64,000 nt of DNA from contig JABWCR010000001.1 in NCBI GenBank assembly GCA_013359125.1, forward strand, positions 174,183 through 238,182, in the 5' to 3' direction. Position numbers and translations under genes: made by a program. Below the pieces are notes generated by a model. That model was not told the origin of the DNA, did no database searches, and was given only the letters and a program-made list of their open reading frames with translations. Shown here piece after piece: positions 5,164-60,000 of this stretch. The DNA is from Armatimonadota bacterium. Its GTDB lineage: Bacteria > Armatimonadota > Fimbriimonadia > Fimbriimonadales > GBS-DC. Numbering within the stretch: the first letter of the stretch is position 1; each line of letters begins with the position of its first letter.

Positions 5164-5172
5164 GGGTAGAAT
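5164..5172 (+). promoter_or_regulatory. GGGTAGAAT box (candidate extended -10) for ispH
   Basis: GGGTAGAAT ends 9 nt before ATG 5182; member of the recurrent GGGTAnAnT family seen upstream of many genes in this window. Confidence 0.45.
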
Positions 5173-5181
5173 AACGGACCG

Positions 5182-6117
5182 ATGGCAACGCAATCCATTG
5201 AGGCTAAGCCAAAGATGAAGGTCGTATTGGCCGAGGTTTTTGGCTACTGCTGGGGCGTCAGGCGCGCCGTCGACATGGTCGAGCAGGCGCGCCAAGCGTT
5301 AGACGGCGAAATCACCACGCTGGGCCCCATCATTCACAACCCTCAGGTGATCGAGAAGCACAAGACCATGGGCATCGGTTTTCGGCCCAATCTTGACGAG
5401 ATTGGGGGCGGAACGGTAGTCTTGTCGGCGCACGGCGTCTCTCCAAGGGTTTCGGAGTTAGCGCGAGACAAGGGTCTGAACGTGATCGACGCGACTTGTC
5501 CTTATGTTACCAAGGTGCACCGGGCTGCCAAGAAAATGGCGCAGGAAGGGTATCAGATCGTCCTGGTGGGCGATCATGGTCATACCGAGGTCAAGGGCGT
5601 TCTGGGCGCGATCGAGCAGGTGGGCGGCGAGATTTACGTCGTTTCGAAGCCGGAAGAAGTGGCCGAACTGCCTTTAGGGCGAAAGGTGGGCGTGGTTACC
5701 CAGACGACGCAGACCGCTGCAAACTTTGGCGCGGTGTTGGCGGAAGTGGCCAAGCGAGCCTACGAGGTGCGGGCCTACAACACCATATGCGGAGCGACGG
5801 ACGAACTGCAGGCCGCGGCGGAGAAGCTGGCCAGCGAAGTCGAGGTCGTCATTGTCATTGGCGGACGCCCTAGCGCCAACACGCGGCGCCTGCGCGACAT
5901 CTGCGAAAAAGAGGGCGTGCCCGCTTACCATATTGAAACGAAGGAAGAGATTCAGAGCGAGTGGCTGCAGGGGAAGAGCGTTGTGGGCGTTACGGCGGGC
6001 GCTTCCACTCCGGATTGGCTTGTGGACGACGTGATACGCTACCTCTCCGATGGGGAGCAGCGCCTGCCCGAACGGCGGTTGTTGGCGGATGACGAGGTTC
6101 AGTCTGCCTACCATTAG
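5182..6117 (+). CDS. ispH: 4-hydroxy-3-methylbut-2-enyl diphosphate reductase
   Basis: 311-aa ORF; LytB/IspH pattern (FGYCWGVRRAV, SAHGVSP, ATCPYVTKVH, HTEV, TQTT, SANT). Start 5182 fits a leaderless transcript from the 5164 box; alternative start ATG 5215 (MKVVLAE) with weak GAGG upstream. Confidence 0.9.
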   Translation: MATQSIEAKPKMKVVLAEVFGYCWGVRRAVDMVEQARQALDGEITTLGPIIHNPQVIEKHKTMGIGFRPNLDEIGGGTVVLSAHGVSPRVSELARDKGLNVIDATCPYVTKVHRAAKKMAQEGYQIVLVGDHGHTEVKGVLGAIEQVGGEIYVVSKPEEVAELPLGRKVGVVTQTTQTAANFGAVLAEVAKRAYEVRAYNTICGATDELQAAAEKLASEVEVVIVIGGRPSANTRRLRDICEKEGVPAYHIETKEEIQSEWLQGKSVVGVTAGASTPDWLVDDVIRYLSDGEQRLPERRLLADDEVQSAYH

Positions 6118-11428: not shown

Positions 11429-11434
11429 ATTCTG
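11429..11434 (-). promoter_or_regulatory. CAGAAT -10-like hexamer 9 nt upstream of ribE ATG (leaderless candidate)
   Basis: Minus strand reads TCAGAAT-N9-ATG, the same geometry as greA (41427..41445). Confidence 0.3.
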
Positions 11435-11442
11435 ACATACCG

Positions 11443-11451
11443 TGCTATAAT
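11443..11451 (+). promoter_or_regulatory. Extended -10 TGCTATAAT for the 11515 secreted-protein gene
   Basis: TGnTATAAT consensus about 64 nt upstream of ATG 11515, which has a GGAGGG Shine-Dalgarno; no convincing -35. Confidence 0.4.
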
Positions 11452-13149: not shown

Positions 13150-15786
13150 GCTTAGTATGGGTCCGATTGAGTTTAGGGCAGTCTCAATCTTGCTCGTGTC
13201 GCGGCCGCCAGCTTGAGCAAAGTCGGGTCGCCCGCCTCCTCCTCCGCCCGTCATCTCGGCTAATCTCTTAACGATGTCGCCCGCCTTCAGCCCCTTGGCG
13301 ATCGCGTCCGGTTTGCATTTGACCACCCAGAGCGCCTTGCCGTCCGCGTTCGATACGCCGATCGCGACGCTGGCTCCTTGGTCGGCCAGGGCATCGACCG
13401 CGGCGCCTAGGCTCTTGGAGTCGGCGCCGCCCAACTCAATTTGAGCGACTTGCAGTCCTGCGACGGCGATTGTCGTCGCTTCGCGGCTCTTGCCGACCGT
13501 TTGAGAGGCTCGCAGGCGCTGAACCTCCCGTTGTTCTTCCTTTATCCGATCTTTCAGCCGTTCGATCGCTTTGGGCAGTTCAGCTACTGTAGTCGATGCC
13601 AGATGGCTTGCCTCTTCAAGGGTCGCTTCGCGTTCTGACAGCCAATTCAAGAGCGCTTCGCCGGTCAGCGCTTCGATTCGCCTTACGCCGGACGCCACGC
13701 TGCCTTCGTGCACGATCTTGAAGAGCCCAGCTTGGATGGCGTTGCCAAGATGCGTGCCGCCGCACAGTTCGAGCGAAAAACCCGGAATCTCCACCATCCG
13801 CACCGAATCGCCATACTTCTCCCCAAAAAGCGCCATTGCGCCGCGCTCTCGGGCTTCGGAGAGGGGCACGTTCTCGTGGATTATAACGGGGCTTTCGGCC
13901 AATATCTGCTCGTTCACCATTCGCTCGACTTTGGCGATTTCGTCCTTTGTCATCGGCGCGCCGTGGGTAAAGTCGAAGCGCAGGCGGTCTGGCGCGACGA
14001 GCGACCCGGCCTGGCTGACATGCTTTCCCAGGACATTGCGCAGAGCCGCATGAAGCAGATGGGTCGTCGTATGGTGGCGCATGATGCGTCGGCGACGCTC
14101 AAAGTCGATCGCCGCTCGCACAGCTTGGCCTCTGCTTGCTGTGCCTGTAACGATCTCGGCATGATGAAGGTGGAAGCCGTCTCGCTTCTTGGTGTCCAAA
14201 ACTCGAACGATCAGGCCGTTGGTGGAAATCTCGCCCGTGTCTCCCACCTGCCCGCCCGATTCGGCATAAAAGGGCGTCTGGTCTAAGACGATCTCAACCG
14301 TTTGGCCCTGTTGCGCCGAATCAATCAAACTACCGTTCAGAACGATGCCGACGATCGTGGCTTCGGAGACTTTATCGGTATAGCCGACGAAGTGCGTTTC
14401 GCCGTGCGCCTTGGCCAATTCGGCCAACGCTGTGCCCGCATCTACGAAGAGCTGGCTGCTCATACCGCCCGCTTCTCTCGCGCGTTGGCGCTGCGCTTCC
14501 ATAGAAGTCTCAAAGCCTTGTTCATCGACCGTAGCGCCTCTTTCGGCGGCCACTTCGCGGGTCAGTTCCAATGGAAATCCGTAGGTATCGTAGAGCATGA
14601 AGGCCGTTTCGCCCGATAGTTGGCCGCCTTCCTCTACCTCTGCCAGGGCTTCTTCTAACCGAGCCAGTCCGGCGGCGACCGTGTGCAGGAATCGCTCTTC
14701 CTCTGTTTGCAAAGTCGTGGAGATCAGTTCTTTTCGCTGCTCTAGTTCGGGATATTGATCGCCCAACGCCTCAATGACGCCTGGCAACAGATCGGCTAGA
14801 AAGGGCCTCTTTAGGCCTAAAGCCCTTTGCCCGCGCAGCGCTGCGCGGCGAATGATGCGCCGTAGAACATAGCCGCGTCCCTCGTTTTGGGGAAGCACGC
14901 CGTCGGCGATGCAAAAGACCGCTGCTCGCGTATGGTCGGCGATCAGTCGAAAGGCCGCGTCGCTCGCTTCGCTCTGGCCGTATCGATGTCCGGACAGTTG
15001 CTCAGTCAGACGGATAATCGGCATGAAAACGTCGGTCTCAAAGACCGATGGAAAGCCGGAAAGCACACAGGCTGTGCGCTCGACGCCCATGCCGGTATCG
15101 ATGTTTTGTTTAGGCAGCGGCGTTAGGACGGGTTCGCCGTTCTTTTCCGTGCGTTCGTATTGGATAAAGACGAGGTTCCAGATTTCTAACCATCGGCCGC
15201 ATTCGCAGGCAGGACCGCACTGGGGATTGCCGCACTCTTGGCCGGGGGCGGTGTCGTAGAATATCTCAGAACAGGGGCCGCACGGGCCGTTCGGTCCCTC
15301 GCTGATGACGTTGGCCGGCCAATAGTTCGCATCCTCGTCCAGCCGCCAGATGCGCTCTTTTGGGATACCGATCCCGTTGTTCCAAAGGTCGAAAGCCTCG
15401 TCGTCGTCCTTAAAGACGGTGAACTGGAGCCGATTCGGATCGAGCTTTAAGCGCTCGGTAAGGAACTCCCACGCCCAAAAGATTGCTTCGCGCTTGAAGT
15501 AATCGCCAAAGCTAAAATTGCCCAGCATCTCGAAGAAGGTGCAGTGCGAAGCGTCGCCGACCGATTCGATATCCGTCGTTCGAAAACACTTTTGAGCGGT
15601 AGCCGCCCGGGGGTGCGGGGGTTGCGCCGTGCCCAAAAAGTAGGGTTTGAACTGCACCATTCCGGCGCTGGTAAACAGCAAAGAAGGATCCTGCGGAACC
15701 AAGCTGTCCGAGGGCATCAACCGGTGGTCCTTCTCTTGAAAGAACTCAAGAAAGGCCTTGCGCAAAGAGCGGGCGTTCCAGGTCAT
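13132..15786 (-). CDS. alaS: Alanine--tRNA ligase
   Basis: 884-aa ORF; class II AlaRS N-terminal pattern (FLEFFQEKDHRLMPS, FTSAGM, RTTD), editing-domain HxxxH/CxxxH motifs (HTTTHLLH, CGGTH), C-terminal DHHA1-like GGGGGRPDFAQAGG. Confidence 0.97.
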   Translation of the reverse strand: MTWNARSLRKAFLEFFQEKDHRLMPSDSLVPQDPSLLFTSAGMVQFKPYFLGTAQPPHPRAATAQKCFRTTDIESVGDASHCTFFEMLGNFSFGDYFKREAIFWAWEFLTERLKLDPNRLQFTVFKDDDEAFDLWNNGIGIPKERIWRLDEDANYWPANVISEGPNGPCGPCSEIFYDTAPGQECGNPQCGPACECGRWLEIWNLVFIQYERTEKNGEPVLTPLPKQNIDTGMGVERTACVLSGFPSVFETDVFMPIIRLTEQLSGHRYGQSEASDAAFRLIADHTRAAVFCIADGVLPQNEGRGYVLRRIIRRAALRGQRALGLKRPFLADLLPGVIEALGDQYPELEQRKELISTTLQTEEERFLHTVAAGLARLEEALAEVEEGGQLSGETAFMLYDTYGFPLELTREVAAERGATVDEQGFETSMEAQRQRAREAGGMSSQLFVDAGTALAELAKAHGETHFVGYTDKVSEATIVGIVLNGSLIDSAQQGQTVEIVLDQTPFYAESGGQVGDTGEISTNGLIVRVLDTKKRDGFHLHHAEIVTGTASRGQAVRAAIDFERRRRIMRHHTTTHLLHAALRNVLGKHVSQAGSLVAPDRLRFDFTHGAPMTKDEIAKVERMVNEQILAESPVIIHENVPLSEARERGAMALFGEKYGDSVRMVEIPGFSLELCGGTHLGNAIQAGLFKIVHEGSVASGVRRIEALTGEALLNWLSEREATLEEASHLASTTVAELPKAIERLKDRIKEEQREVQRLRASQTVGKSREATTIAVAGLQVAQIELGGADSKSLGAAVDALADQGASVAIGVSNADGKALWVVKCKPDAIAKGLKAGDIVKRLAEMTGGGGGGRPDFAQAGGRDTSKIETALNSIGPILSELAGE

Positions 15787-15797: not shown

Positions 15798-15806
15798 AGT
15801 TTACCC
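15798..15806 (-). promoter_or_regulatory. GGGTAAACT box for alaS
   Basis: Minus strand GGGTAAACT followed by 11 nt then ATG 15786; no Shine-Dalgarno in between. Confidence 0.4.
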
Positions 15807-15829: not shown

Positions 15830-15838
15830 GGGTAGAAT
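15830..15838 (+). promoter_or_regulatory. GGGTAGAAT box for the rpoA operon
   Basis: GGGTAGAAT 53 nt upstream of ATG 15892, which carries a GAGGTGA Shine-Dalgarno. Confidence 0.45.
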
Positions 15839-15891: not shown

Positions 15892-16878
15892 ATGATAACA
15901 AACATTGATCGACCCATGGTAACTTGCTTAGCGAGCGAGCCGACCTATGGAAAGTTCGAAGTACTGCCGTTAGAGCGCGGGTATGGCGCCACGCTGGGCA
16001 ATGCCATGCGCCGCGTTCTGCTTTCGTCCATCCCGGGCGCGAGCGTAACGGCCATCAAGATCGAAGGCATTTTGCACGAGTTTGCCCCTATTCCCGGCGT
16101 TAAGGAAGACGTCGTGCGGCTGTTGATGAATCTGAAGAATCTGTCGCTGGTCGTTCATCGGCGCGACGCTTCGGACGATGAGCCGAGAGTTTTGAAGCTG
16201 GACGTTAAGGGCGCCGGACGCGTAACTGCGGCCGATTTGCGCGCTCCAGCCGACGTCGAGATCTGCAACCCGGAACTCTACCTGTGCACGATGAGCGACA
16301 AGAAGGCTAGGCTTTCACTCGAAGTCTATGTCGAGGTTGGTCGCGGCTATGTAACGTCGGATCAGATGGACACTTTTCGCGGTCGCATCGGCGTGATTCA
16401 GGTGAGCGCGCTCTTCTCTCCGGTTCGCCGAGTGAACTACTTTGTCGAATCGACCCGCGTCGGCGAGCGGACCGACTATGACCGTTTGGTGCTCGAGGTT
16501 TGGACCAACGGCGCTGTCAAGCCCGCCGATGCGATCTCGCAGGCTGCCCGACAGCTCCAACAGCAGGTCGCCATCTTTACCGGCTTCGAAGATTATTCGG
16601 CCGAGGCCGCCGTTATGGTGGAACCGCCTGCCGAAGCGCCCGAATCTTTGGTGCCCGACATCAAGATCGACGAGATGAACTTCACTCAGCGGCCCTATAA
16701 TCGCTTGAAAAGCGCGAACATCAACACGCTCCGCGATCTGGTGTTGTGGAGCCCGAGCGAACTGATGAACATTCGCAACTTTGGCGAGGCCGCTCTAAAG
16801 GAAGTGCGGGAGAAGGTCGAGGCTATGGGCTTCAATCTGAAGAACGACAATTCGACGAGCGAGGATGATGAATTATGA
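15892..16878 (+). CDS. rpoA: DNA-directed RNA polymerase subunit alpha
   Basis: Start moved to ATG 15892 (328 aa) with GAGGTGA SD. N-terminal GKFEVLPLERGYGATLGNAMRRVLLSSIPG and C-terminal domain (NRLKSANINTLRDL) are classic RpoA. The 15544 ORF-track start is an antisense-of-alaS extension. Confidence 0.95.
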   Translation: MITNIDRPMVTCLASEPTYGKFEVLPLERGYGATLGNAMRRVLLSSIPGASVTAIKIEGILHEFAPIPGVKEDVVRLLMNLKNLSLVVHRRDASDDEPRVLKLDVKGAGRVTAADLRAPADVEICNPELYLCTMSDKKARLSLEVYVEVGRGYVTSDQMDTFRGRIGVIQVSALFSPVRRVNYFVESTRVGERTDYDRLVLEVWTNGAVKPADAISQAARQLQQQVAIFTGFEDYSAEAAVMVEPPAEAPESLVPDIKIDEMNFTQRPYNRLKSANINTLRDLVLWSPSELMNIRNFGEAALKEVREKVEAMGFNLKNDNSTSEDDEL

Positions 16879-17228
16879 ATCACGGCATTTCTCAGCGAAA
16901 GTTAGGTCGTCCGGGCGATCAGCGCAAAGCGCTGCTGAGGGGCTTGGTGCGTTCGCTCTTCATCCATAGCACGATCGTGACTTCGGTTACTCGCGCAAAG
17001 GAAGCGCGAAAGATCGCCGAGAAGCTGATCACCACCGCCAAGACGGATACGCTACAGGCGCGGCGAGAGGCCAGGAAGTTTCTGGTGGACGAGGATCTGG
17101 TGAAGTTGTTGTTTGACAACATCGTCAAGCGTTACGAAACGCGCAATGGAGGCTATACCCGCATCGTTCGGATAGGGCCTCGGCGCGGAGACGCCGTAGA
17201 ACAAGCGGCGCTGAGCCTGTTAGATTGA
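16875..17228 (+). CDS. rplQ: 50S ribosomal protein L17
   Basis: 117-aa ORF; RKLGRPGDQRKALLRGL and GGYTRI motifs; ATGA overlap with rpoA. Confidence 0.95.
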   Translation: MNHGISQRKLGRPGDQRKALLRGLVRSLFIHSTIVTSVTRAKEARKIAEKLITTAKTDTLQARREARKFLVDEDLVKLLFDNIVKRYETRNGGYTRIVRIGPRRGDAVEQAALSLLD

Positions 17229-17240
17229 CAATTTGTCGCC

Positions 17241-17969
17241 ATGCGCAGGCTGGCGATGGCTGTAGAATACGACGGAACCGATTTTCACGGTTTTGCCGCA
17301 CAGCCTGATCTGCGCACTGTGCAAGGGACATTGACCGATGCGCTCGAGCGGTTGCTCGGTTGCTCGGTCGAGGTAACCGGCGCCGGACGCACGGACGCAG
17401 GAGTGCACGCCAAGGGGCAAGTGGTCGATTTTGCAACCGAGGCGAGCATTCCCGCAAAGCGGGTCGCCCGAGCGATCAATCGGCTACTGCCGGTCGATCT
17501 GCAGGCGATCAAGGCTTGGGAGGTTGCTGAAGATTTCAGCGCGCGCTTCTCGGCCAAGAGCCGGATCTACCGGTATCGCCTCTACACGGGGAGGCGGGCG
17601 TCCGTTTGGAAAGCGCGGTATGCGTGCTGGTTTCCTTACGAGGTGGACGCAGCGATGGCGCAGACGGCGGCAGAGATGTTGGTGGGGGAGAAAGATTTTC
17701 GCGCGTTTTGCGCGGATTGGTCGGAACGAGAGAACTTTGTGCGAGAAATCTATCGCGCAGAGGTTAGACGAAAGGGCTCGTTCATCGATCTGGAGTTGGA
17801 AGGCACGGCCTTTATGAAGGGCATGGTGCGGCTGATCGCAGGCGCAGTCTTTCTGGTAGGGCGAGGGTCGAGATCGCTCGATTGGATGGGCGAGCTGGTG
17901 GCGAATTCGCGGCGAGCCAGCCTCATGATGCCGCCGCAGGGTCTGTGTTTGATGAAGGTGCGGTACTAA
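17241..17969 (+). CDS. truA: tRNA pseudouridine(38-40) synthase
   Basis: 242-aa ORF; YDGTDFHGF and catalytic GAGRTDAGVHA motifs. Confidence 0.9.
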   Translation: MRRLAMAVEYDGTDFHGFAAQPDLRTVQGTLTDALERLLGCSVEVTGAGRTDAGVHAKGQVVDFATEASIPAKRVARAINRLLPVDLQAIKAWEVAEDFSARFSAKSRIYRYRLYTGRRASVWKARYACWFPYEVDAAMAQTAAEMLVGEKDFRAFCADWSERENFVREIYRAEVRRKGSFIDLELEGTAFMKGMVRLIAGAVFLVGRGSRSLDWMGELVANSRRASLMMPPQGLCLMKVRY

Positions 17970-17983
17970 GTTGGAGGAACGAG

Positions 17984-18421
17984 ATGCATCGGACATATGT
18001 GGCTAAACCGGATGAGATAAACAGGACTTGGTGGGTAGTGGACGCGGAGGGCATACCCGCGGGCCGTCTGGCGGTCGATATCGCACGGCTGCTTCAGGGA
18101 AAGCACAAGACCACGTTTACACCCCACATGGACACCGGCGATTGTGTGATCGTGATCAACGCCGACAAACTGGCGCTGACGGGCAACAACAAGCGGGGCG
18201 AGGAACTGTTCCGGCATTCGCAATACCCGGGCGGTCTGAAATCGATCACTCGGGGCGACCTGATGGCAAAGCGGCCCGACAAAATGTTGCAGCGCATTGT
18301 GAGCGGCATGCTGCCCAAGACGCGATTGCGACCGCGCATGATGAAGCGATTTAAGATCTATTCGGGCGACGCCCATCCGCATTCGGCGCAAAACCCGCAA
18401 CCGATCAGTTTCAACAAGTAA
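17984..18421 (+). CDS. rplM: 50S ribosomal protein L13
   Basis: Start at ATG 17984 (145 aa; MHRTYVAKPDEINRTWWVVDA); GRLA...LLQGKHK pattern. Confidence 0.95.
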   Translation: MHRTYVAKPDEINRTWWVVDAEGIPAGRLAVDIARLLQGKHKTTFTPHMDTGDCVIVINADKLALTGNNKRGEELFRHSQYPGGLKSITRGDLMAKRPDKMLQRIVSGMLPKTRLRPRMMKRFKIYSGDAHPHSAQNPQPISFNK

Positions 18422-18434
18422 CGGAGAACAAAGC

Positions 18435-18827
18435 ATGAGTCAAACTTATCCATATGGCACTGGGCGACGAAAGTCGGCCATCGCGCGCGTCTGGATCATG
18501 CCCGGACAGGGCAAGATCACGATAAACGGGCGCGAATCGGCCGAGTATCTGCGGCGAGCGGTGTTAGAAAAGGTCATCGACCAGCCCTTCCGAGTCTTGG
18601 GCGTTGAGGGCCAGTACGACGTGAAGTGCACGGTGAAAGGCGGCGGTACCACCGGTCAGGCCGGCGCCATTCGTTTGGGCATTGCTCGAGCGCTTCAGGT
18701 TTCCAATCCCGACTTCCGCGCTGTGCTGAAGGAGAGCGGGCTGCTGACGCGAGACGCCCGAGAGAAGGAGCGAAAGAAGTACGGTCGCCACGGGGCGCGC
18801 CGTGGCTTCCAGTTTGTAAAGCGGTAA
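18435..18827 (+). CDS. rpsI: 30S ribosomal protein S9
   Basis: 130-aa ORF; GTGRRKSAIARV and C-terminal KKYGRHGARRGFQFVKR. Confidence 0.95.
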   Translation: MSQTYPYGTGRRKSAIARVWIMPGQGKITINGRESAEYLRRAVLEKVIDQPFRVLGVEGQYDVKCTVKGGGTTGQAGAIRLGIARALQVSNPDFRAVLKESGLLTRDAREKERKKYGRHGARRGFQFVKR

Positions 18828-18836
18828 GATTCTTGT

Positions 18837-20972: not shown

Positions 20973-20982
20973 CCGAGTGGAA

Positions 20983-21003
20983 GGGGAGGGTGGCTCCCTC
21001 CCC
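20983..21003 (-). terminator. Intercistronic GC hairpin between pseudopilin gene and DUF58 gene
   Basis: Minus-strand GGGGAGGG-AGCCA-CCCTCCCC (8-bp stem) lies 12 nt after the pseudopilin stop and 10 nt before the DUF58 GTG; could act as partial terminator or attenuator. Confidence 0.35.
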
Positions 21004-21015
21004 TATGCCGTTCGC

Positions 21016-22854: not shown

Positions 22855-22900
22855 GGCTTTATGGTAATTGCACCGGGTTTTGCAGAAAACATTCGACGCC

Positions 22901-22908
22901 GGTATACT
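22901..22908 (+). promoter_or_regulatory. GGTATACT -10-like box for the GNAT gene
   Basis: GGTATACT followed by 10 nt then ATG 22919, no SD. Confidence 0.3.
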
Positions 22909-26271: not shown

Positions 26272-26280
26272 ATTCTACCC
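26272..26280 (-). promoter_or_regulatory. GGGTAGAAT box for the transketolase-subunit gene
   Basis: Minus-strand GGGTAGAAT 23 nt upstream of ATG 26248; the short leader holds the SD. Confidence 0.45.
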
Positions 26281-27237: not shown

Positions 27238-27246
27238 GGGTAAACT
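27238..27246 (+). promoter_or_regulatory. GGGTAAACT box for the HAD hydrolase gene
   Basis: GGGTAAACT followed by 7 nt then GTG 27254. Confidence 0.4.
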
Positions 27247-29956: not shown

Positions 29957-29965
29957 ATTCTACCT
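29957..29965 (-). promoter_or_regulatory. AGGTAGAAT box for pyrC
   Basis: Minus strand AGGTAGAAT-N7-ATG 29949. Confidence 0.4.
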
Positions 29966-29975
29966 TCGATGCCAA

Positions 29976-29984
29976 AGGTATAAT
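29976..29984 (+). promoter_or_regulatory. AGGTATAAT box for prpB-like gene
   Basis: Consensus TATAAT followed by 9 nt then ATG 29994, no SD. Confidence 0.45.
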
Positions 29985-30893: not shown

Positions 30894-30899
30894 CCGAAG

Positions 30900-31684
30900 A
30901 TGGCGATCAGACAGCGGTTTGGCATTGGCGAATGGTACGGCAGACCCATTCAATTTCTTTCGAACGAGCAACGCGGCGCCAATGCTGCCAATGTGAGCAA
31001 AAGCCAGCCATGCCCGTTCAAGACTCTGGGCGCCAATAGAACGTGTACCAAAGCGGGAGGGGTTTGCACTTTACAGAAGTTCTCTCCGATTCGAAGAAGA
31101 CTGGCGAATATTTGCATGGATCGGAAGGGAACTGTTGGGACACGAAGAGCCGCAAGTGGCAGGTGAAATTGGCTTCCTCGAAGGCGAACGGTCTGATGTC
31201 GGTCGAATTGACAACATCTTGGCCGTCGTTCGCGAGGGACGACTTGAATGGTGCGCTCTCGAGATACAAGCCGTCTATTTTTCGGGTCGATCGATGAGTT
31301 CTGATTTCATGGCTTGGTCCGAGCATCGATACAGGTATTCGCAGGCCCGATTTTCGCAGCAGCGGACCAAAGAGGCTCATGCCGCAGCTGCAGATAAAGG
31401 TTCCTACGCTGCGAAGATGGGGCAAGAAGATGGCCGTAGTGGTTGACGAGCCGTTCTATCGGTCGTTGTCCCCTATGCAGTCTGAATCCGATCCATCCAA
31501 CGCAGACATCGGCTGGTTTGTGGTCAATTATAAGGCTATTGAGGAGCGGTTCGAACTTGCGCCGAGATTTGTCGTGTACACTACCTTGGAACGCGCTGTT
31601 GAGGGGCTTACAGCGGGAAAGCCAGTTTCATTGGAGACGTTCGAGCAAAGGATAAGAAGCAAACTCAGACCGGCAGACAGCTAA
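30900..31684 (+). pseudogene. Type II restriction endonuclease, NotI-like PD-(D/E)XK family, disrupted by two frameshifts
   Basis: Homologous sequence runs through three frames. Frame of 30900: FGIGEWYG...QPCPFKTLGANRTCTKAGGVCTL, paralleling the NotI N-terminal Cys cluster. Frame of 31081: GRIDNILAVV...LEWCALEIQAVYFSG, a D...E-x-Q/K catalytic core. Frame of 31319: RPDFRSSGPKRLMPQLQIKVPTLRRWGKKMAVVV. Shifts lie near 31080..31090 and 31298..31340. Confidence 0.6.
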
Positions 31685-32558
31685 GCGATGTTAGCGAGCC
31701 ATTCAAAGTCTCGACTGATCATTAGCTCGAATTTGACCTCGTGGTGGCTGCTCTTCATCGGCGCTCGCTCCAGTGCCAGCCCATTTCGTGCAGCCAATCG
31801 TTCGATTTCGGGCGATTGGTCGTAAGTCATCAATAGCCTCCATTCGCCACCCTTACAGAGTTCAAATAGCTTTGCGTGGTCAACGTGGTTGAAGCGATAG
31901 AGTCTTCGCCCAGCCACGGTGTATGGCGGATCGACGAACATGGCGGTCGATGGGTTGTCTGGAGCGCTGGCGATCGACGCCAATCCGTCGCCCTGAATGA
32001 ACCTTATCTTGTCCCGCATTGCATGTATGGCCATGATTCGATTGGCCAAAGTCGTTGGATACCATCTCGAAGCCAAGCCGCGTCCGTTCTCGCCGCTCTT
32101 GATGCGACCCGCGCCCGGCGCCAAGATACCGCTCCTATTGACCCTGTTCAGCAAGATAGCGCGAAAGGCGCGATCAAGGTCGTTCTGACACTCAAAGTGG
32201 AGCCACTCGGCCACCGAGTCATGCGACAACTCGAAAGAGACGATTCTCTTGGCTAGGTGCTCTGCATCATGGCTTAGAACGACGCTCCAGACCGCCGCTA
32301 TGTCGGGGTCGATCTCGGTCAGAACGGCTCTCTCGACCAGACCCTCTGCTACCGCAGTGAGCGACGCAATGCCGCCCCACAAAATGGCTCATAAAATTCA
32401 CTTATGAGAGCAGGGCCGCTCCTGAGCCATGCACGCACATAAGGCACCATCCAGGTCTTGCCCCCGGGATAGCGGAACACGCTCCGCTGCGGCACTTTGG
32501 AGACATTAATGACTGGGACCGTTGGCTTTAAGTCGAAGAGCCGTTGCTGGGGGCTCAC
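31681..32558 (-). pseudogene. Dam-like (D12 class, alpha-type) N6-adenine DNA methyltransferase, disrupted by one frameshift
   Basis: N-terminal ORF has FRYPGGK and EPFCG; the downstream ORF continues GGIASL... and carries FVDPPY. Restoring one G in the G4 run (plus-strand CCCC 32375..32378) gives EPFCGGGI (FxGxG motif). Likely start GTG 32558 downstream of a GGGGTATACT box; the ORF-track ATG 32624 would overlap rpiB. Confidence 0.75.
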
Positions 32559-32568
32559 TGTAGACGAA

Positions 32569-32578
32569 AGTATACCCC
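32569..32578 (-). promoter_or_regulatory. GGGGTATACT box for the methyltransferase pseudogene
   Basis: Minus strand GGGGTATACT-N10-GTG 32558, immediately after the rpiB stop. Confidence 0.35.
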
Positions 32579-35701: not shown

Positions 35702-35766
35702 GGCAACTCCTCCGCGCTTCGGGCGCGGCTATCGACCCTATATTCTATCCCAACATGCTCTCGATT

Positions 35767-35775
35767 GGGTATACC
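35767..35775 (+). promoter_or_regulatory. GGGTATACC box for alr
   Basis: GGGTATACC (palindromic GGGTATACCC) followed by 7 nt then ATG 35783; no SD. Confidence 0.35.
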
Positions 35776-39520: not shown

Positions 39521-39529
39521 TGCTATCCT
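39521..39529 (+). promoter_or_regulatory. Extended -10-like TGCTATCCT upstream of pseudopilin gene
   Basis: TGn plus TATCCT 44 nt upstream of ATG 39573, which has an AGAGGGGGG SD. Confidence 0.3.
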
Positions 39530-40579: not shown

Positions 40580-40931
40580 GGGATCGGCCAGCCTATAAGC
40601 CGGGTTCTGTGTTCGGCGACGATCTCTCTGCGATCCGGCTTGCGCTCGGACCTGTAGCGGCCAACCCGAGAGGCGCGCGGGCCGCGCGATCCCTCTCCTA
40701 TTTGGCCTTGCTCCCGGCGGGGCTTGCCCAATCGACCATTGCTGGCCGACCGGCGCGATCTTATCTGCGCCTTTTCACCCTTACCCGATTGGCTACGGGC
40801 GGTTTCCTTTCTGTTGCGCTTTCCGTACGAGCCTTCGCTCGCCCCGGGCGTTACCCGGCGCCGCGCCCAATGGAGCCCGGACTTTCCTCCCTGCGAAGAA
40901 TCGCAGGGCCGCCGCCCAGCTGGCCGATCCC
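40580..40931 (-). ncRNA. rnpB: RNase P RNA, bacterial type A
   Basis: Minus strand reads GGGAUCGGCCAG...AGGGAGGAAAGUCCGGGCUCCAU...GGUAACGCC...CAACAGAAAGGAAACCGCC...GGUAAGGGUGAAA...GGAGCAAGGCCAAAUAGG...ACAGAACCCGGCUUAUAGGCUGGCCGAUCCC. All universally conserved regions are present, and P1 pairs 5' GGGAUCGGCCAG with 3' CUGGCCGAUCCC. Confidence 0.95.
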
Positions 40932-40936: not shown

Positions 40937-40945
40937 GATATACCC
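40937..40945 (-). promoter_or_regulatory. GGGTATATC box for rnpB
   Basis: Minus strand GGGTATATC-TTTTT-G, where G (40931) is the first base of the P1 stem. This spacing is that of a -10 hexamer and its transcription start. Confidence 0.5.
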
Positions 40946-40960: not shown

Positions 40961-40969
40961 TGCTATAAT
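40961..40969 (+). promoter_or_regulatory. Extended -10 TGCTATAAT for the repeat lipoprotein gene
   Basis: Consensus TGnTATAAT 48 nt upstream of ATG 41017. Confidence 0.4.
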
Positions 40970-41403: not shown

Positions 41404-41433
41404 TTGACTTCTGCTCTATCAATCCTTCAGAAT
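41404..41433 (+). promoter_or_regulatory. Candidate sigma-70 promoter for greA (TTGACT-N18-CAGAAT)
   Basis: -35 TTGACT 41404..41409, -10 CAGAAT 41428..41433, then 9 nt to ATG 41443 with no SD (leaderless candidate). Confidence 0.4.
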
Positions 41434-45330: not shown

Positions 45331-45339
45331 GGGTATAGT
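45331..45339 (+). promoter_or_regulatory. GGGTATAGT box for the ilvE operon
   Basis: GGGTATAGT 37 nt upstream of ATG 45377 (leader with CGGAGG SD). Confidence 0.4.
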
Positions 45340-48409: not shown

Positions 48410-50653
48410 GCGGTACTCCATCGGTTTCAACGTATGGCGGCCATGATCAACGAGCGCCGACTTGAGATCGACCTCGATCGTCTCTTGCGTTAAGTTGATC
48501 ACAAACGAGACGTTCTGCGCGGTCTGGCACACAACGCCCCATGCAAATTCGCCGTTGGTTCGGAATGCCTGCAGTCCCGGCGGGCGCGCATCGGTCTGTC
48601 GGATCAGCTTGAGCAGCTCGGCCGTCGTCTCCATCGCATTCAGGTTGGGCAATCGGTAGAGCGTTTCGCCGACAAATCGCTGGGTTCGCGCCCGCCCGTA
48701 GAGGTCTTGATCTAACACTGCGCCCTCAGGCACCAAGGCTTTGGCTCCGTTGGCCAGCGCAGTATTCAGGCGCACCAGCGCCTCGTCCGAAAGTCGGCGC
48801 GCGCCGGGAATAGCGATGACTGTCTCGGCTGGGGGCGTTACGCCCTCTTCCAAAGCGCGTTCGGTCAATATGCCCACTCGGAATCCCGCCGTTATCAGGG
48901 CTAAGTACCAGCGCTCAAAGTCGGCCTCGTGGCGTTCTGGATCGTGCGCCGCATCGACCGGCGAATAGAGCAGATAAGCATCCGGCGGAGCGCTGCCGAG
49001 CGTGCGAACGTCCGATCGAAGTCGGCCCAGTTCCGAAACGGCCCTTGATACGGCCAGCGTCCCAAGCGGATTGACTGCGCCTGACGAAAAACGGATGCCT
49101 GCTCCGTTGGCGCCCAGCACGGCAAGGAACATCAAGAGCCCTTCTGCTTGGTCCCCGATCTTCGCCGGCAGGTCGAGAGGATCGATGAGTATGTGCCGAG
49201 CGCCGCACGCTTTGGCCATGGCAAGCTGCTTGGCCAACTTTGACCAACCGACCGCCCAGGTTGCTCCCCGATCGTTGGGCATAGAGACCATGCCCTCGAT
49301 CGCGGCTAAGCCAGATTTGATGTAGCGCGGCTCCGTCAATCGAATTCGGCCAGAGTCGTCTGCCTCCATTCTATACAAAGTCGAGTCGGTCAAGTGAGGC
49401 TCTTTGGCGGCCTGCTCGAAACTTTCGTGCTTTGTGCCCCAGCGCAAGTTGAGCGTTGCGAGGCTCTTGTGCCGCGCTTCAAGCCACTTCTCAAGGCTCA
49501 ACGACTGTTTGGGCTCGGTGATTGTTACGGTCGGCTTCGGCAGAAGCCCTAAAGCATCCCGTTCGCCTTTTGTCAATTCGGGATCGCTGATCCAAACCAC
49601 GCCTCTTTCGCCTGTTGCGGCGGCATGGCCCTTCATTTGCAGCGCAAAGGGCAACAAGAGTAGCGCGTCCTCCTCTTTGGCCTGGCGGGCGAACAGAGCG
49701 AACGCTCCGTCGCTCGTATCGCCGGCTGGAGCGCGCATCTTGATAAACTCCTTGACTTGCGAGCCTGTATAGAAGCGAACTGTCCGCTCCAACGCTAGAG
49801 CCTCGCCGCCGATGATAATGGACAGTTCGAGCCTCTGCTTCTTCTCCAAGTCCTTAAACTGATCCGCGGTTCCGCCAAAGGTCAGCTTGCTGACGCCTGC
49901 AGGAATGTTCGGACGGATCGCCAGTTCGCCCTCTTCGCTGCCGGCGCGAATCACGGCGCCTTTGACCGCTTCGGTCGCCGCGATAATCGCCTCAGCCGAC
50001 CAACTTCCGTCGGGCGCGAAGACGACTGACGGCATCGCCCATTCAACGCTCAGCCTGCCGCCTTGTCCGGCGCTTGGGGCGCCTTCGAACACCTGCAGTC
50101 CGTCCACGCACAGTCCATCCGTGGCCGAATCGATCTGAAACTGAAGAGGCAAAGACGTCTGCTGGTCGTCCGTCGTGTACTCGATGCTCTTGCGAACCCA
50201 TTGGCCCTGGGTGTGCTCGAACGGCGACCGAAAACGTCCGCCGATCCCGTCGGTCAGCGAACCTTGATAAAAGCCGTCCGTTTTAAGCCAGAAGACGATC
50301 GAATAGGTCGTCTTGGGCTTCACGGTCAGCGGGCTATCCAGCGTCAAATGGGCGATAGCGCGAACGCCGGTCGAACGGTCGTTTGCGAACTTTAAGGCTC
50401 GCTGGCCGTGCACCGGAGAGGCCGTTTCCCACTCAATTCGAACGCCTGATCCGCGCGCGCTGAATGTCCATCCTTCGGGAGCCTCGTCGCCAATCTCGAA
50501 ACTGCCGTTTGTCAATAGACTTGGCTTTGCGCTCATCGCCTGAGGCTCGATTTTGACAAAGCGCACAGGCAACGGAGCGCCGCGCATGGTGTGAGCAGGG
50601 GGTTGGCCTTGCCCAATGAAAACCGAAACGCACAAAAGCCAGACAAACCGCAT
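48395..50653 (-). CDS. Large secreted protein of unknown function (CBM-like N-terminus, GH42-middle-domain-like region)
   Basis: Start moved to ATG 50653 (signal peptide MRFVWLLCVSVFIGQG; 7 nt downstream of a GGGTAGACT box). NGSFEIGDEAPEGW resembles CBM4_9/galactose-binding-like modules. WLEARHKSLATLNLRWGT resembles the GH42 beta-galactosidase linker motif. No catalytic assignment possible. Confidence 0.5.
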   Translation of the reverse strand: MRFVWLLCVSVFIGQGQPPAHTMRGAPLPVRFVKIEPQAMSAKPSLLTNGSFEIGDEAPEGWTFSARGSGVRIEWETASPVHGQRALKFANDRSTGVRAIAHLTLDSPLTVKPKTTYSIVFWLKTDGFYQGSLTDGIGGRFRSPFEHTQGQWVRKSIEYTTDDQQTSLPLQFQIDSATDGLCVDGLQVFEGAPSAGQGGRLSVEWAMPSVVFAPDGSWSAEAIIAATEAVKGAVIRAGSEEGELAIRPNIPAGVSKLTFGGTADQFKDLEKKQRLELSIIIGGEALALERTVRFYTGSQVKEFIKMRAPAGDTSDGAFALFARQAKEEDALLLLPFALQMKGHAAATGERGVVWISDPELTKGERDALGLLPKPTVTITEPKQSLSLEKWLEARHKSLATLNLRWGTKHESFEQAAKEPHLTDSTLYRMEADDSGRIRLTEPRYIKSGLAAIEGMVSMPNDRGATWAVGWSKLAKQLAMAKACGARHILIDPLDLPAKIGDQAEGLLMFLAVLGANGAGIRFSSGAVNPLGTLAVSRAVSELGRLRSDVRTLGSAPPDAYLLYSPVDAAHDPERHEADFERWYLALITAGFRVGILTERALEEGVTPPAETVIAIPGARRLSDEALVRLNTALANGAKALVPEGAVLDQDLYGRARTQRFVGETLYRLPNLNAMETTAELLKLIRQTDARPPGLQAFRTNGEFAWGVVCQTAQNVSFVINLTQETIEVDLKSALVDHGRHTLKPMEYRLIRW

Positions 50654-50660
50654 GGCCGAA

Positions 50661-50669
50661 AGTCTACCC
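50661..50669 (-). promoter_or_regulatory. GGGTAGACT box for the 773-aa secreted-protein gene
   Basis: Minus strand GGGTAGACT-N7-ATG 50653; left arm of a perfect 9-bp inverted repeat. Confidence 0.45.
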
Positions 50670-50675
50670 CCTAAA

Positions 50676-50684
50676 GGGTAGACT
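50676..50684 (+). promoter_or_regulatory. GGGTAGACT box for the RNase H-like gene
   Basis: GGGTAGACT-N8-ATG 50693; right arm of the same inverted repeat. Confidence 0.45.
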
Positions 50685-50692
50685 TCTGTATC

Positions 50693-51478
50693 ATGCTCAG
50701 AAGCACCTTTCTCCATGCTGTTGGGGCCGATGCTCGTCTGGAGCGGAATCTCTGGCGTCAGGGCGCGCTAACCTGGGAAGAGTTTCTTCGGGGTCCATAT
50801 GACGTGCCGGACGAGGCCGCGATCAAAAGCGAGATCGAAGGCTCTATCGCGGCATTGGATGAAAAAGATCGGACCTTCTTTTCGCGCCGCCTGCCTTCTG
50901 CCTATCGATGGAGAGCGTTCGACGAGTTTGGCGAGAAGACCGCTTATCTCGACATCGAGACAGACGGGAGGACGTTGATCACCGTGATCGGGGTGTTCGA
51001 CGGCTTCGAAATGCATCAGTACGTTTTGGGAGACAATCTGAACGACTTTCGCCGCGATATCGAGCAGTACGACCTGATTGTAACCTACTTTGGCGAGAAC
51101 TTCGACCTGCCCATGATTCAGCGCAACTTTCCGTCGGTTTTCTTCGATCAGGTTCACATCGACCTTTGTCCCGTACTAAGGCGGCTGGGCTACAAGGGCG
51201 GGCTGAAGAAGGTGGAACGGCTGATGGGCATTTATCGCGATGGCGATGTGGACGGCTTGGACGGTCGGGCCGCCATCCGGCTCTGGCAAGACCACATCGA
51301 CGGCAAGCGCGGCGCCTTGGACCTGCTGCTAAAGTACAACTATGACGACTGTGCGAATCTGGCCGTACTCATGAAAAAAGCCTACAAGAAGCTGAGAGCC
51401 GATACCGGCTATGACGCGATCGCTCGGCGGGTTAAGGCCGATGCGGCGGTATCAGATTCGCGCTCAGCGGCCGATTGA
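50693..51478 (+). CDS. RNase H-like fold exonuclease family protein (YprB/COG3359-like)
   Basis: 261-aa ORF; AYLDIETDG and VTYFGENFDLPM resemble the DEDD-type exonuclease motifs of the RNase_H_2 family. Recognition is by pattern only. Confidence 0.55.
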   Translation: MLRSTFLHAVGADARLERNLWRQGALTWEEFLRGPYDVPDEAAIKSEIEGSIAALDEKDRTFFSRRLPSAYRWRAFDEFGEKTAYLDIETDGRTLITVIGVFDGFEMHQYVLGDNLNDFRRDIEQYDLIVTYFGENFDLPMIQRNFPSVFFDQVHIDLCPVLRRLGYKGGLKKVERLMGIYRDGDVDGLDGRAAIRLWQDHIDGKRGALDLLLKYNYDDCANLAVLMKKAYKKLRADTGYDAIARRVKADAAVSDSRSAAD

Positions 51479-54774: not shown

Positions 54775-54979
54775 CGATAGGCCTCCTTTATTCCCCAAGA
54801 TTCACGGTTCGTTTCAGCCCCAGGGGTACCGTTGATTATCGGAAAGCCTCGCAAAAATCCTTAGAGTTCAGGTAAGGATTGGGGGGCTAATCGCAGAATT
54901 CGCGATCCCTCGATTCGAACTCAAAGTTGTGCTACAAATTTTCAAAAAGCCGTTCGCGCATGAGGGTAACCTATGCCAC

Positions 54980-57005: not shown

Positions 57006-57014
57006 GGGTAGACT
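57006..57014 (+). promoter_or_regulatory. GGGTAGACT box for mfd
   Basis: GGGTAGACT-N9-ATG 57024, no SD. Confidence 0.45.
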
Positions 57015-57023
57015 CTCCTTTGC

Positions 57024-60000
57024 ATGGCCGCCAATTGGCTGGAAGCCCTGCGGCAAAGATTAGAACTCGAACCCCCCGGCGCTCCGACCGAGTGGGCCGA
57101 TCTTTGCCAAGAAGCCAAGCCCCCTCTCTTCTCGGCAGTATTCCGCTCGTCCGACAAGCCCGCGCTGATCATTGCCTCGACCTTGGAGCGCGCCGAGACG
57201 TGGATCGCAGCGCTGTTGCGACTGGGGTTTCCCGAGGATCGGCTCGTTCGACTGCCCTCTGGCGCAGCGTCTTGGTTCGATCCGTCCGGCGTCGAACTGG
57301 AAGCCCGCAACGACCGGATCCAAGCGATGACTCGAGTTCAGAACGGCGACCCAGTAGTCGTTGTGGCTCCTGTGTCAGCCGCATTGCATCGCACGGGTCG
57401 CCCCGATTGGTTTGGCGATCAGACCGTCCGCATTGCCAAAGGCGAAGCGCTCGAGCCGGAAGCGCTGATCAAACGACTTCTTTGGACGGGTTATGAGCAT
57501 CAAGATCCGGTGCGTCTGCCAGGCCAGTTTGCTCGGCGCGGCGGCATTGTGGATTTCTTTCCTCTCGGCTCCGGATTGCCCGTGCGAGTGGAGTTTTTTG
57601 GGGACGAGATCGAGAGTTTAAGACGATTTGAGCCTTCCACTCAGCGATCGGTCAAAACAATGGAGCGCGCGACCGCGCCGCCCGCCAGGGAGATTCCGCT
57701 TGGAAATCCGCAAGTCGCTGCGCAGATTCGAGAGCTTTGGACGGACGTGGAGGACGATCTGCTTCATGCCGATCTGGGCGCGCTTCACCAAGGGTTGCCG
57801 TTCGATCGATTAGAGGTCTATCTGCCGTGGCTGGAGGAGCGCCCGACCTGTTTTATCGACTTCATGCCTTCGGACGGCCTGATCTGTCTGGACGAGCCGT
57901 TGCTGATCGCGTCTGCCTATCAGCGCTGGATGGAGGAATTGCAGGCTGCGCTCAACTCTCGCGCAGAAAGACACGATCTGGCATCGATGAGCGCGGAAGT
58001 CTACGCGCGACCGTTGACCGAGTTGAAAGGTCGAGCCTCCCTGGCGATGAGCGCGATGGACTCAGGAAAGTTGGATTGGTTCGCGCCCAAAAAGAGCATA
58101 AAAATAGGGGCCAAGTCGCTCGAATCGTATCGCGGCCGTCTGCCCGCGCTATTGGACACCGTTAAGCAGTGGCAAGCCAGCGGCCTCGATCTGATCGTGG
58201 CGACCGATCAGGCAACGAGGGTTGCGCGCGCCTTTCAAGACCAAGGCATCCCTTACATCAGCAACGAGGAGGCGACCGAGCTTCAACCTCGGATCGCGCT
58301 GTTAGAAAGGGGCAATTTGGGCGGCGGATTCATCTGCGAGACGGCAAAGATGGCGCTGCTGACCGACGGCGAACTGTTCGACCTCCATCGCTTGCGGCTC
58401 CCGCCCCGTCGATTTACCGAGGGTGTGCCGATCTCGTCTGTGCTCGACTTGAAACCAGGCGACTATGTGGTGCACATTCATCAGGGCATCGGCATGTTTC
58501 GGGGGCTGGTTACGATCGAGCGAGACGGCGTTACGAAGGAGTATCTGCACATCGACTACGCTCCTCCGGACAAGATCTACGTGCCGTCCGACCAGTTGGA
58601 CCGCGTTCAAAAGTACTACGCTGCAGACGACAAACCGCCCGAAATTCGCCGCCTTAACAGTCTGGCTTGGGCCAAGGCCGTCGCGACTGCTAGAAAGAAG
58701 GCGCAGGAGATTGCGGGCGAATTGGTCGCTATCTACGCTCGGCGAGAGAAGGCGACCCGACCATCGTGCGGACCAGACACGCCTTGGCAACAGGAGATGG
58801 AACTGGCGTTCCCCTATACGGAGACGCCCGGCCAGATGAACGCGATTGTCGAGACCAAGAGCGACATGATGGCGCCGCATCCGATGGATCGACTGGTTTG
58901 CGGCGATGTGGGCTTTGGCAAGACGGAAGTCGCCGTTCGAGCCGCGTTCAAAGCGCTGCAGGAAGGACGCCAAGTGGCCGTGCTCTGCCCGACGACCGTG
59001 CTGGCCTATCAGCATTGGCAGACCTTTACCGAACGGTTCGGGGCCTACCCGATTCGTGTCGAACTGCTGAGCCGTTTGATCAGCGCGAAGAATCAGAAGC
59101 CGATCGTGCAGGCGATCCATGCCGGAGCGGTCGATTTGGTAGTAGGCACGCATCGTTTGCTGTCAAAGGACATCGCATTTAAGAACCTGGGCCTTGTGAT
59201 CATCGACGAGGAGCAGCGATTTGGAGTGATGCAAAAGGAGAAGTTCAAACAATTGCGGGCGACGGTGGATGTGATGACGCTCACCGCAACGCCGATTCCG
59301 CGCACGCTCTACATGGCTCTGACCGAGATACGGGATATGAGCCTGATTTCCGACCCGCCGCCTGGCAGGATGCCGATCCGCACCCACGTACAGCCCCACG
59401 CCGATTGGCTGGTGCGGGAGGCCGTGCTGCGGGAGCTCCAGAGGGATGGACAGATTTTCTATGTGCACAATCGAGTCAGCGCGCTCCCCCACATTGCGGA
59501 AAAACTTCGCCAACTGGCGCCCCATTGTCGCATCGAGATCGCTCATGGCCAAATGCCGGCAGAGGAGATGGAATCGATCATGCTGGCGTTCTATCGCCGA
59601 GAGTTCGATGCGCTGGTCTGCACCACGATCATCGAAAACGGGCTGGACATCCCAAATGTTAACACGCTGATCGTCGATCAGGCAGACAAGTTCGGCCTGT
59701 CCCAGCTTTATCAATTGCGCGGGCGCGTAGGACGGAGCGATCGGCAGGCGTACGCCTACTTTCTTTATCGACCGGGGCAGAAACTGACAGACGCGGCCTT
59801 TGACAGGTTAGAAGCGCTGAAGGAGTTCAGTCACTTGGGCTCTGGATTTGCGCTGGCGATGCGCGACTTAGAGATTCGCGGCGCGGGCAATCTGTTGGGC
59901 AGCGAGCAGCACGGCGCGGTGCGGATGGTCGGGTTCGAACTCTATCAGACCATGCTGCGCGAGGAGATTCGCAGGCTCAAGCGCGGCGGCGAGGCGGTCT

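Follow-up and report, generated by a model that had tools for sequence, protein, structure and literature searches.

The window analysed here is a stretch of 64,000 nt from an Armatimonadota genome (GenBank assembly GCA_013359125.1, contig JABWCR010000001.1, positions 174,183 to 238,182), in which ispH, alaS, the rpoA operon, pyrC, prpB, alr, the RNase P RNA gene, ilvE, mfd and two genes for secreted proteins, among others, are preceded by a recurrent box, GGGTAnAnT. The original prediction, made from this sequence, took the box for a candidate lineage-specific extended -10 promoter element and proposed that it gives rise to pervasive leaderless mRNAs. The organism has a G+C content of 59% and carries lipid A genes, flagellar genes and many prepilin-type proteins. 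As its best named relatives in the alanyl-tRNA synthetase (AlaS) comparison are 'Fimbriimonadales', 'Fimbriimonadia' and 'Armatimonadota bacterium' (62-65% identity), it is, judged by this protein, an Armatimonadota of the Fimbriimonadia type. About 10 kb on either side of the window was joined from matching assemblies to give an extended sequence of 83.6 kb. Precomputed gene calls with Pfam labels, covering almost all of the window, came from contig JAPKFX010000001.1 of GCA_026646355.1, a metagenome-assembled genome (MAG), and from several Logan assemblies. The extended sequence holds 82 gene calls, four of which are our own picks of open reading frames (ORFs) in the uncalled part at 18.8-22.9 kb, and is 93.7% coding.

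Distribution, anatomy and conservation of the box

Within the window, GGGTANANT occurs 12 times, compared with 1.91 ± 1.44 copies expected from dinucleotide shuffles, and none of 100 shuffles reached this number. The extended sequence contains 16 copies, 11 of them wholly intergenic, while intergenic DNA makes up only 6.3% of its length. This corresponds to an intergenic to coding density ratio of 33; as the ratio is 3.7 for TANANT alone, the GGG adds specificity. All intergenic copies are oriented toward the adjacent downstream gene, including every one of the roughly eight non-divergent contexts (counted by inspection) in which orientation is informative. Coding sequence holds few copies, and most of the five scored as coding look promoter-like upon inspection: one lies inside an over-long call of a HAD hydrolase gene, two, each located before the following operon, overlap with the MFS and E2 stop codons, and a fourth lies 11 nt before a tRNA-Arg gene that is masked by a spurious ORF call. 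The sole copy resembling noise is antisense inside alaS (13965-13973). The intergenic and gene-directed placement that had been predicted is therefore borne out, and all 14 boxes of the original prediction were recovered at their positions with their spacers. The computational checks suggested along with that prediction all turned out in its favour.

An unbiased ranking of 6-mers in 51 gene-oriented upstream regions recovered the same signal. GGTAGA, GGGTAG, GGTATA, TAGAAT and AGGGTA came first (p from 1e-10 to 1e-7 for the former four) and the Shine-Dalgarno (SD) words GGAGGT, AGGAGG and CGGAGG second, so that the box and the SD sequence constitute the two dominant upstream signals. Furthermore, 38% of strict boxes are followed at N6-11 (N6 denoting 6 nt between box and start codon) by an ATG or GTG that opens an ORF of at least 100 codons. 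The same arrangement was found for 0-6% of composition-matched control words and for 3% in a background of 1.1 Mb from at least 80 unrelated bacterial AlaS loci among the matches listed, all with no more than 51% AlaS identity.

In an alignment of 20 boxes, information was confined to positions -15 to -7, with no informative column from -45 to -16. The extension consists of G at -15 (18 boxes, A in two), G at -14 (all 20) and G at -13 (19 boxes, A in one), with an information content of 1.3-1.8 bits at -15 to -13. In the hexamer, T at -12 and A at -11 are found in 20 of 20 boxes, in agreement with the TAnnnT of the sigma-70 family; A occupies -9 in 19 boxes and T occupies -7 in 18 (C in two), while -10 can be G, T or A and -8 either A or C. 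The main class thus carries GGG at the positions where the classical extended -10 has TGn. In agreement with the original prediction, no conserved -35 element was seen in this alignment, and a generic sigma-70 scan returned two classical bipartite -35/-10 sites, compared with 4.5 expected in shuffles, neither of which is at a box. A TTGACA located 9 nt upstream of the rpoA box was considered for a -35 role and rejected for its wrong spacing.

Relatives were compared at three distances, namely a sister species (L023), four relatives with about 63% AlaS identity (L020, L021, L106 and L107) and a more distant Armatimonadota with 51% AlaS identity (L022). The sister species shares 93% nucleotide identity, is colinear over 22.6 kb and retains all boxes, with a 1-nt insertion in the ispH spacer. 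In the four relatives at intermediate distance, (G)GGTA(C/T)A(A/C)T stands before leadered, SD-bearing genes (rpmB, rpmH, mscL), and the same box is also found at N7-N8 before starts that have no SD. Examples are a divergent pair in L106 (GGTACACT-N7-ATG and GGTACAAT-N7-ATG), GGGTATACT-N7-GTG in L106/L107 and GGGTACAAT-N8-ATG at the AlaS gene of L107. No box signal was found in L022 or among the unrelated AlaS loci, and an Mfd scan of genome contigs, which returned distant matches only (38-52% identity; Verrucomicrobia, Bacteroidales and other MAGs), gave no box enrichment. The presence of (G)GGTAnAnT in the Fimbriimonadia relatives, and not in L022 or the unrelated bacteria, supports the lineage specificity that had been proposed.

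Spacing, start codons and a promoter interpretation

Distances between box and start codon are bimodal, with either N6-11 and no SD or 23-196 nt and an SD. Each gene of the leadered group (rpoA, the transketolase subunit, ilvE, ctpB, gcvH, an S8 peptidase gene, and the E1 and PLD operons) has a good SD, as had been predicted for the first three, whose boxes lie 53, 23 and 37 nt before the start codon. In the proximal group the spacers are N6 for orf274 and a DUF2752 gene, N7 for the HAD hydrolase, pyrC, alr and the 752-aa and 438-aa secreted proteins, N8 for the RNase H-like gene, N9 for ispH, prpB and mfd, N10 for a methyltransferase remnant and a GNAT gene, and N11 for alaS. The mode is thus N7, and the eight spacers from N6 to N8 fall within the 6-8 nt range of leaderless genes; the distribution has a fitting shape, with a tail to N11 that reaches beyond the textbook values. 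Proximal genes make up about 14 of about 51 transcription units and 17% of genes. The term pervasive, as used in the original prediction for leaderless genes, therefore holds for about a quarter of transcription units. Also as predicted, none of the SD words GGAG, GAGG and AGGA lies between box and start in the proximal genes. Anti-SD duplexes of -6 kcal/mol or lower were obtained for 3 of 14 box genes and for 38 of 68 other genes (Fisher p = 0.04); the three positive scores stem from the G run of the box itself, by which these energies are partly confounded (e.g. -10.7 kcal/mol for the 752-aa gene).

At the sequence level, the positions at which AlaS, PyrC, PrpB, Mfd and the RNase H-like protein begin are settled by homology or by ORF structure. 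AlaS begins with an M-x-W-N-A-R N-terminus that is common to 34 relatives, with no in-frame start upstream, and the PyrC Met at 29949 coincides in the alignment with the N-terminus of solved dihydroorotases. For PrpB, residue 2 of the E. coli protein corresponds to residue 10 counted from 29994, and the automatic start at 30078 therefore truncates 28 conserved residues. The mfd frame has a stop inside the box and no other start in its first 45 codons. Likewise, an in-frame stop lies at or beside the box of the RNase H-like gene, where ATG 50693 has no competing start codon within the first 36 codons. Both secreted proteins show a clean signal peptide from the predicted Met. In the HAD hydrolase, the DxD motif follows 11 residues after GTG 27254, and the automatic call at GTG 27215 is probably extended by 13 residues. 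The secreted protein read from 50653, which had been described as a 773-aa gene, is called at three lengths across 50587-50716: its product is 752 aa from 50653, a length of 773 aa needs ATG 50716, and the automatic start at 50587 gives 730 aa. Finally, in the divergent pair 50653/50693 the two ATGs are 39 nt apart and the boxes 6 nt apart, and in the pair 29949/29994 the ATGs are 44 nt apart, so that neither pair has room for leaders.

Two RNA genes anchor the box. The RNase P RNA extends by Rfam from 40927 to 40580 on the minus strand, and box GGGTATATC ends 9 nt before this start. With its P1 helix lengthened by four possible pairs (GGGA with UCCC), the structural 5' end falls at 40931; the predicted distance of 5 nt holds for this extended end. 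The second anchor is a tRNA-Arg(CCG) located about 2.7 kb outside the window on the same contig, where GGGTAAAAT ends 11 nt before the mature 5' end. In L107 (62% AlaS identity), AGGTAAAAT ends 13 nt before the orthologous tRNA-Arg, the flanks being otherwise unrelated. Distances of 11-13 nt to mature tRNA 5' ends would allow a short processed leader. Because the box precedes RNase P RNA and tRNA-Arg, an mRNA-level role in ribosome binding is ruled out and a -10 element fits.

Based on this evidence, GGGTAnAnT very likely represents a -35-independent -10 element of sigma-A with a lineage-specific G-rich extension, which would give rise to leaderless mRNAs for a sizeable minority of genes. In GGGTA(G/T/A)A(A/C)T, the TAnAnT part (-12 to -7) would correspond to the -10 of housekeeping sigma-70-type promoters and would be extended upstream by the near-invariant GGG at -15 to -13. 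As such promoters have no -35 hexamer, recognition likely rests on the -10 together with the G-rich extension, the GGG possibly being recognised by sigma region 3.0, and transcription would start about 5-8 nt downstream of the box. A box 23-196 nt from its gene would thereby produce an ordinary leader with a strong SD, as for rpoA, transketolase, ilvE, ctpB and gcvH. A box 6-11 nt from an ATG or GTG would place the 5' end of the transcript at the start codon or a few nt from it, leading to leaderless translation, perhaps by 70S-type initiation. The predicted leaderless set comprises alaS, pyrC, prpB, alr, mfd, the RNase H-like gene, the two secreted proteins and the HAD hydrolase, with ispH, the GNAT gene and others as probable further members.

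Several observations weigh against this interpretation. The statistics cover only about 84 kb of the genome. The intergenic regions of the sister species are near-identical and thus too close for footprinting at the level of the box, and in the relatives the annotation-free N6-11 statistic is noisy (12-16% vs 0-21% in controls). Two boxes, those of alr and rnpB, end in C in place of T. The starts used for the HAD, 752-aa and 438-aa proteins differ from some automatic calls. For ispH, the predicted box and N9 spacer are present but the start at 5182 is not secure: the alignment with solved IspH starts from the second Met, 5215, and the call in the sister species uses the same Met, so that ispH may have a leader of about 35 nt. 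In addition, the N9-11 spacers of ispH, alaS, prpB, mfd and the methyltransferase exceed the 6-8 nt typical of exact leaderless genes and would imply leaders of 2-4 nt or unusually long discriminators.

These points partly feed an alternative in which the box is a -10 but the proximal genes are not truly leaderless. Transcription would start 2-5 nt upstream and initiation would be independent of an SD but dependent on the 5' untranslated region (UTR), or the genes would be served by read-through or longer transcripts. Half of the proximal spacers are N9-N11, mfd and orf274 are located only 24 and 9 nt behind a co-directional gene, where read-through is possible, and a start of ispH at 5215 would be accompanied by a leader with a weak GAGG. 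On the other hand, the spacer mode of N7 places +1 on the A of the ATG, and the divergent pairs 50653/50693 and 29949/29994 leave no space for another promoter outside the coding sequence of the partner. The proximal genes are also without an SD, and their N7-N8 layout recurs in relatives. Moreover, transcripts whose 5' UTR is very short are counted as leaderless and were reported to be efficiently translated in D. deserti (PMC4007540). Partial or absent leaderlessness of the proximal genes is thus rather unlikely.

A site for a global transcription factor or nucleoid protein, in place of a sigma -10, could explain why the information content of GGG plus TAnAnT exceeds that of most -10 elements and why the box often lies in short divergent intergenic regions. 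Such a function is very improbable for a box that is non-palindromic, strictly gene-oriented and fits TAnnnT, including its canonical invariant A and T. Its distance from two RNA genes is promoter-like as well, the housekeeping genes that it serves are unrelated in function, and it is the top upstream signal alongside the SD, as in Deinococcus (PMC12340547). A non-SD ribosome-binding signal in the mRNA would match the short, fairly constant distance to many SD-less start codons, but it is contradicted by the two untranslated RNAs and by identical boxes 23-196 nt before genes with their own strong SD. As the box is furthermore absent before translationally coupled internal operon genes and is not complementary to the CCUCC tail, this role is scarcely credible. 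Although the motif is short and the sample small, chance or a compositional artefact is refuted by the shuffles, the 33-fold intergenic excess, the control words without start association and the 6-mer ranking, and retains next to no probability.

A second box class and other elements

The coordinates of the boxes are collected in Table 1. Five of them (54964-54972, 61647-61655, 35742-35750, 22900-22908 and 18822-18830) lie beyond those of the original prediction.

Table 1 Boxes of the main class, the second class and weak variants in the window, with spacers (N, in nt) or distances to the downstream gene.
Gene or feature	Box	Position	Strand	Relation to gene
ispH	GGGTAGAAT	5164-5172	+	N9 before ATG 5182
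alaS	GGGTAAACT	15798-15806	-	N11 before ATG 15786; no SD
rpoA-rplQ-truA-rplM-rpsI operon	GGGTAGAAT	15830-15838	+	53 nt before ATG 15892; SD GAGGTGA in leader
orf274 (ABC permease-like)	variant CGGTAAGAT	18822-18830	+	N6 before ATG 18837; 9 nt after rpsI stop
GNAT acetyltransferase	variant CGGTATACT	22900-22908	+	N10 before ATG 22919; kept in sister species
Transketolase C-terminal subunit	GGGTAGAAT	26272-26280	-	23 nt before ATG 26248; leader SD GGGAGGAG
HAD hydrolase	GGGTAAACT	27238-27246	+	N7 before GTG 27254
pyrC	AGGTAGAAT	29957-29965	-	N7 before ATG 29949
prpB-like methylisocitrate lyase	AGGTATAAT	29976-29984	+	N9 before ATG 29994; back to back with pyrC box
Dam-like methyltransferase (frameshifted)	GGGGTATACT	32569-32578	-	N10 before GTG 32558
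CtpB-like S41 protease	variant GGATAGAAT	35742-35750	-	40 nt before ATG 35701; leader SD GGAGGAG
alr	GGGTATACC, last base C	35767-35775	+	N7 before ATG 35783
RNase P RNA (40580-40931)	GGGTATATC	40937-40945	-	5 nt before structural 5' end 40931
ilvE	GGGTATAGT	45331-45339	+	37 nt before ATG 45377; leader SD GGAGG
752-aa secreted protein	GGGTAGACT	50661-50669	-	N7 before ATG 50653; signal peptide MRFVWLLCVSVFIG
RNase_H_2-like protein	GGGTAGACT	50676-50684	+	N8 before ATG 50693; 6 nt from divergent box
438-aa secreted protein	GGGTAACCT	54964-54972	+	N7 before ATG 54980
mfd	GGGTAGACT	57006-57014	+	N9 before ATG 57024; 24-nt gap after thuA
E1-alpha/E1-beta/E2 operon	GGGTATAAT	61647-61655	+	Overlaps MFS stop codon; 196 nt before operon
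Secreted 532-aa protein	second class TGCTATAAT	11443-11451	+	63 nt before ATG 11515; strong SD
Prepilin-type protein	second class TGCTATCCT	39521-39529	+	43 nt before ATG 39573
Lipoprotein	second class TGCTATAAT	40961-40969	+	47 nt before ATG 41017
ribE	weak variant TCAGAAT	11429-11435	-	N9 before ATG 11419; CCAGAAT in sister species
greA	weak variant TCAGAAT	41427-41433	+	N9 before ATG 41443

A second, smaller class, TGC-TAnnnT (TGCTANNNT), has six intergenic and six coding copies, compared with 3 intergenic and 28 coding copies of TG[AGT]TANNNT. Three genes for exported proteins in the window follow such a box, each having a leader of 43-63 nt and a strong SD. The class shares the G at -14 with the GGG class. 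The assignment of TGCTAnnnT to envelope and secreted genes in the original prediction was confirmed at 11443, 39521 and 40961 but not at 54928, since the corresponding TGCTACAAA (54930-54938), upstream of the 438-aa protein, lacks the final T; this gene has the GGGTAACCT box at 54964-54972 besides. It is conceivable, if doubtful, that the primary sigma factor of Fimbriimonadia reads GGG at -15 to -13 rather than TGn or a -35, with the TGC class forming a separate group before leadered envelope and exported genes. The existence of two classes might then be due to two sigma factors, or to two modes of binding, that split cytoplasmic housekeeping genes, which are often leaderless, from envelope genes.

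An element of about 40 nt, ctcAAAGTTGTGCTACA(A)TTTtc..a..cCCGTTCGcg, is present once in the window (54916-54960, plus strand), upstream of the gene for the 438-aa secreted protein. It recurs three times, in both orientations, in a single 330-nt intergenic region between RuvC and TatD (L007 7520-7852), about 2 kb upstream of the window, where 0.03 copies are expected. The element contains a TGCTACA box, and no Rfam family was found at it; it could serve as a promoter and operator common to several sites, or consist of small RNA genes. An untranslated stretch of about 196 nt (61655-61851) separates the GGGTATAAT box from the TTG at which the E1-alpha/E1-beta/E2 2-oxoacid dehydrogenase operon starts, and may be a long regulatory leader. 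Rfam gave no family at threshold for this stretch. The hyp94 call (61528-61812), which overlaps the 3' end of the MFS gene and the E1 leader, looks spurious.

The boxes of the two divergent pairs are arranged back to back (50661-50684 and 29957-29984) and are separated by only 6 and 10 bp. As two polymerases would overlap on the DNA at such pairs, the paired genes (752-aa protein/RNase H-like and pyrC/prpB) may be mutually exclusive in transcription. The rpoA gene (operon 15892-18827) is found outside its usual rpsM-rpsK-rpsD-rpoA context, heads the rpoA-rplQ-truA-rplM-rpsI operon and is divergent from alaS. A hairpin, GGGGAGGG...CCCTCCCC, occupies the 43-nt gap between two minus-strand genes at 20973-21015. 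This is the most diverged intergenic stretch in comparison with the sister species, with changes in loop and flanks and a retained stem, and the hairpin is probably a terminator.

Apparent remains of a restriction-modification system are found at 30894-32580. The predicted box and N10 spacer of the Dam-like methyltransferase were recovered here, whereas its ORF from GTG 32558 stops after about 68 codons, as a frameshift or pseudogene. The methyltransferase continues in another frame as a 233-aa call (31681-32382), and beside it lie a 101-aa NotI-family fragment (31379-31684) and 485 nt without a gene call. Since independent Logan assemblies yield identical gene calls here, a genuine frameshift is probable. 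Outside the window, a 50-aa ORF is called over the tRNA-Arg on the opposite strand (L007 6889-7041). Also outside it, tatD and the gene of an ECF sigma factor are arranged divergently, their called starts being separated by only 10 nt (L007 8772-8783), with no recognisable box or SD at either. Either these starts are miscalled or both promoters lie inside the coding region of the partner.

Comparison with known promoters and significance

Classical extended -10 promoters of E. coli and Firmicutes (TGnTATAAT) are independent of a -35 and have the G at -14 as their key extension base, and the consensus of Corynebacterium glutamicum carries a G upstream of TAnaaT. Compared with the classical extended -10, the T at -15 is replaced by G in the box described here and the G at -13 is conserved as well, while a TGC-TAnnnT class is also present.

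The accepted hallmark of leaderless genes in bacteria is a TAnnnT located about 10 nt upstream of the start codon (Zheng et al. 2011, PMC3160421; GeneMarkS-2 group C, PMC6028130). In D. deserti, differential RNA sequencing showed about 60% of mRNAs to be leaderless (PMC4007540), and mutagenesis in D. radiodurans showed the -10 motif to be sufficient by itself for promoter activity (PMC12340547). For M. tuberculosis, no -35 motif was detected, and TANNNT follows a lineage-typical [G/C][A/G]N, with CGN in 45% (PMC3898074).

A close likeness in layout is seen to Deinococcus-Thermus, including T. thermophilus, where TAnnnT also lies a few bp before ATG or GTG without an SD, where the -10 and GGAG are likewise the two dominant upstream motifs, and where leadered SD genes occur in the same genome (PMC4007540, PMC12340547). 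There, a '-10-motif adjacent to ORFs' is found in roughly 30% of ORFs and the -10 alone suffices as promoter. The present case differs in its phylum, in the near-invariant GGG before the hexamer and in the A as fourth hexamer base, and is predicted from sequence. The SRN-TANNNT promoters of M. tuberculosis resemble it in a dominant -10 without a -35, in a 3-nt extension with G at -14 and in many leaderless transcripts, whereas the extension here is GGG (or TGC) rather than CGN and the information at -15 to -13 appears higher. Group C of GeneMarkS-2 and the 'TA-led' genes share the Pribnow-like box about 10 nt before the first genes of operons, mixed with SD-led genes. In contrast to these surveys, which emphasise Actinobacteria and Deinococcus-Thermus, the most frequent spacer here is N7 and the tail extends to N11, compared with 6-8. 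In the texts of the leaderless-gene literature that were covered, no report on Armatimonadota was found, and a literature search for the literal box sequences returned PCR primers only. The -10-dominant leaderless architecture is thus known in Actinobacteria and Deinococcus-Thermus but seems unreported for Armatimonadota.

The conceptual interest of the finding is modest, and its practical use is in the annotation of Armatimonadota MAGs. Gene callers tuned to the SD misplace starts in this lineage: prpB is truncated, calls for the HAD, 752-aa and 438-aa genes are inconsistent, and a spurious ORF covers tRNA-Arg. GGGTAnAnT at 7-11 nt upstream could serve as a start marker for better annotation. 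The informative GGG extension would also offer a handle on the specificity of sigma region 3.0, with a possible use in promoter prediction or design for this group. A poorly studied and mostly uncultured phylum would join the lineages in which promoters without a -35 and frequent leaderless mRNAs occur together, which bears on the spread and age of leaderless, -10-dominant expression.

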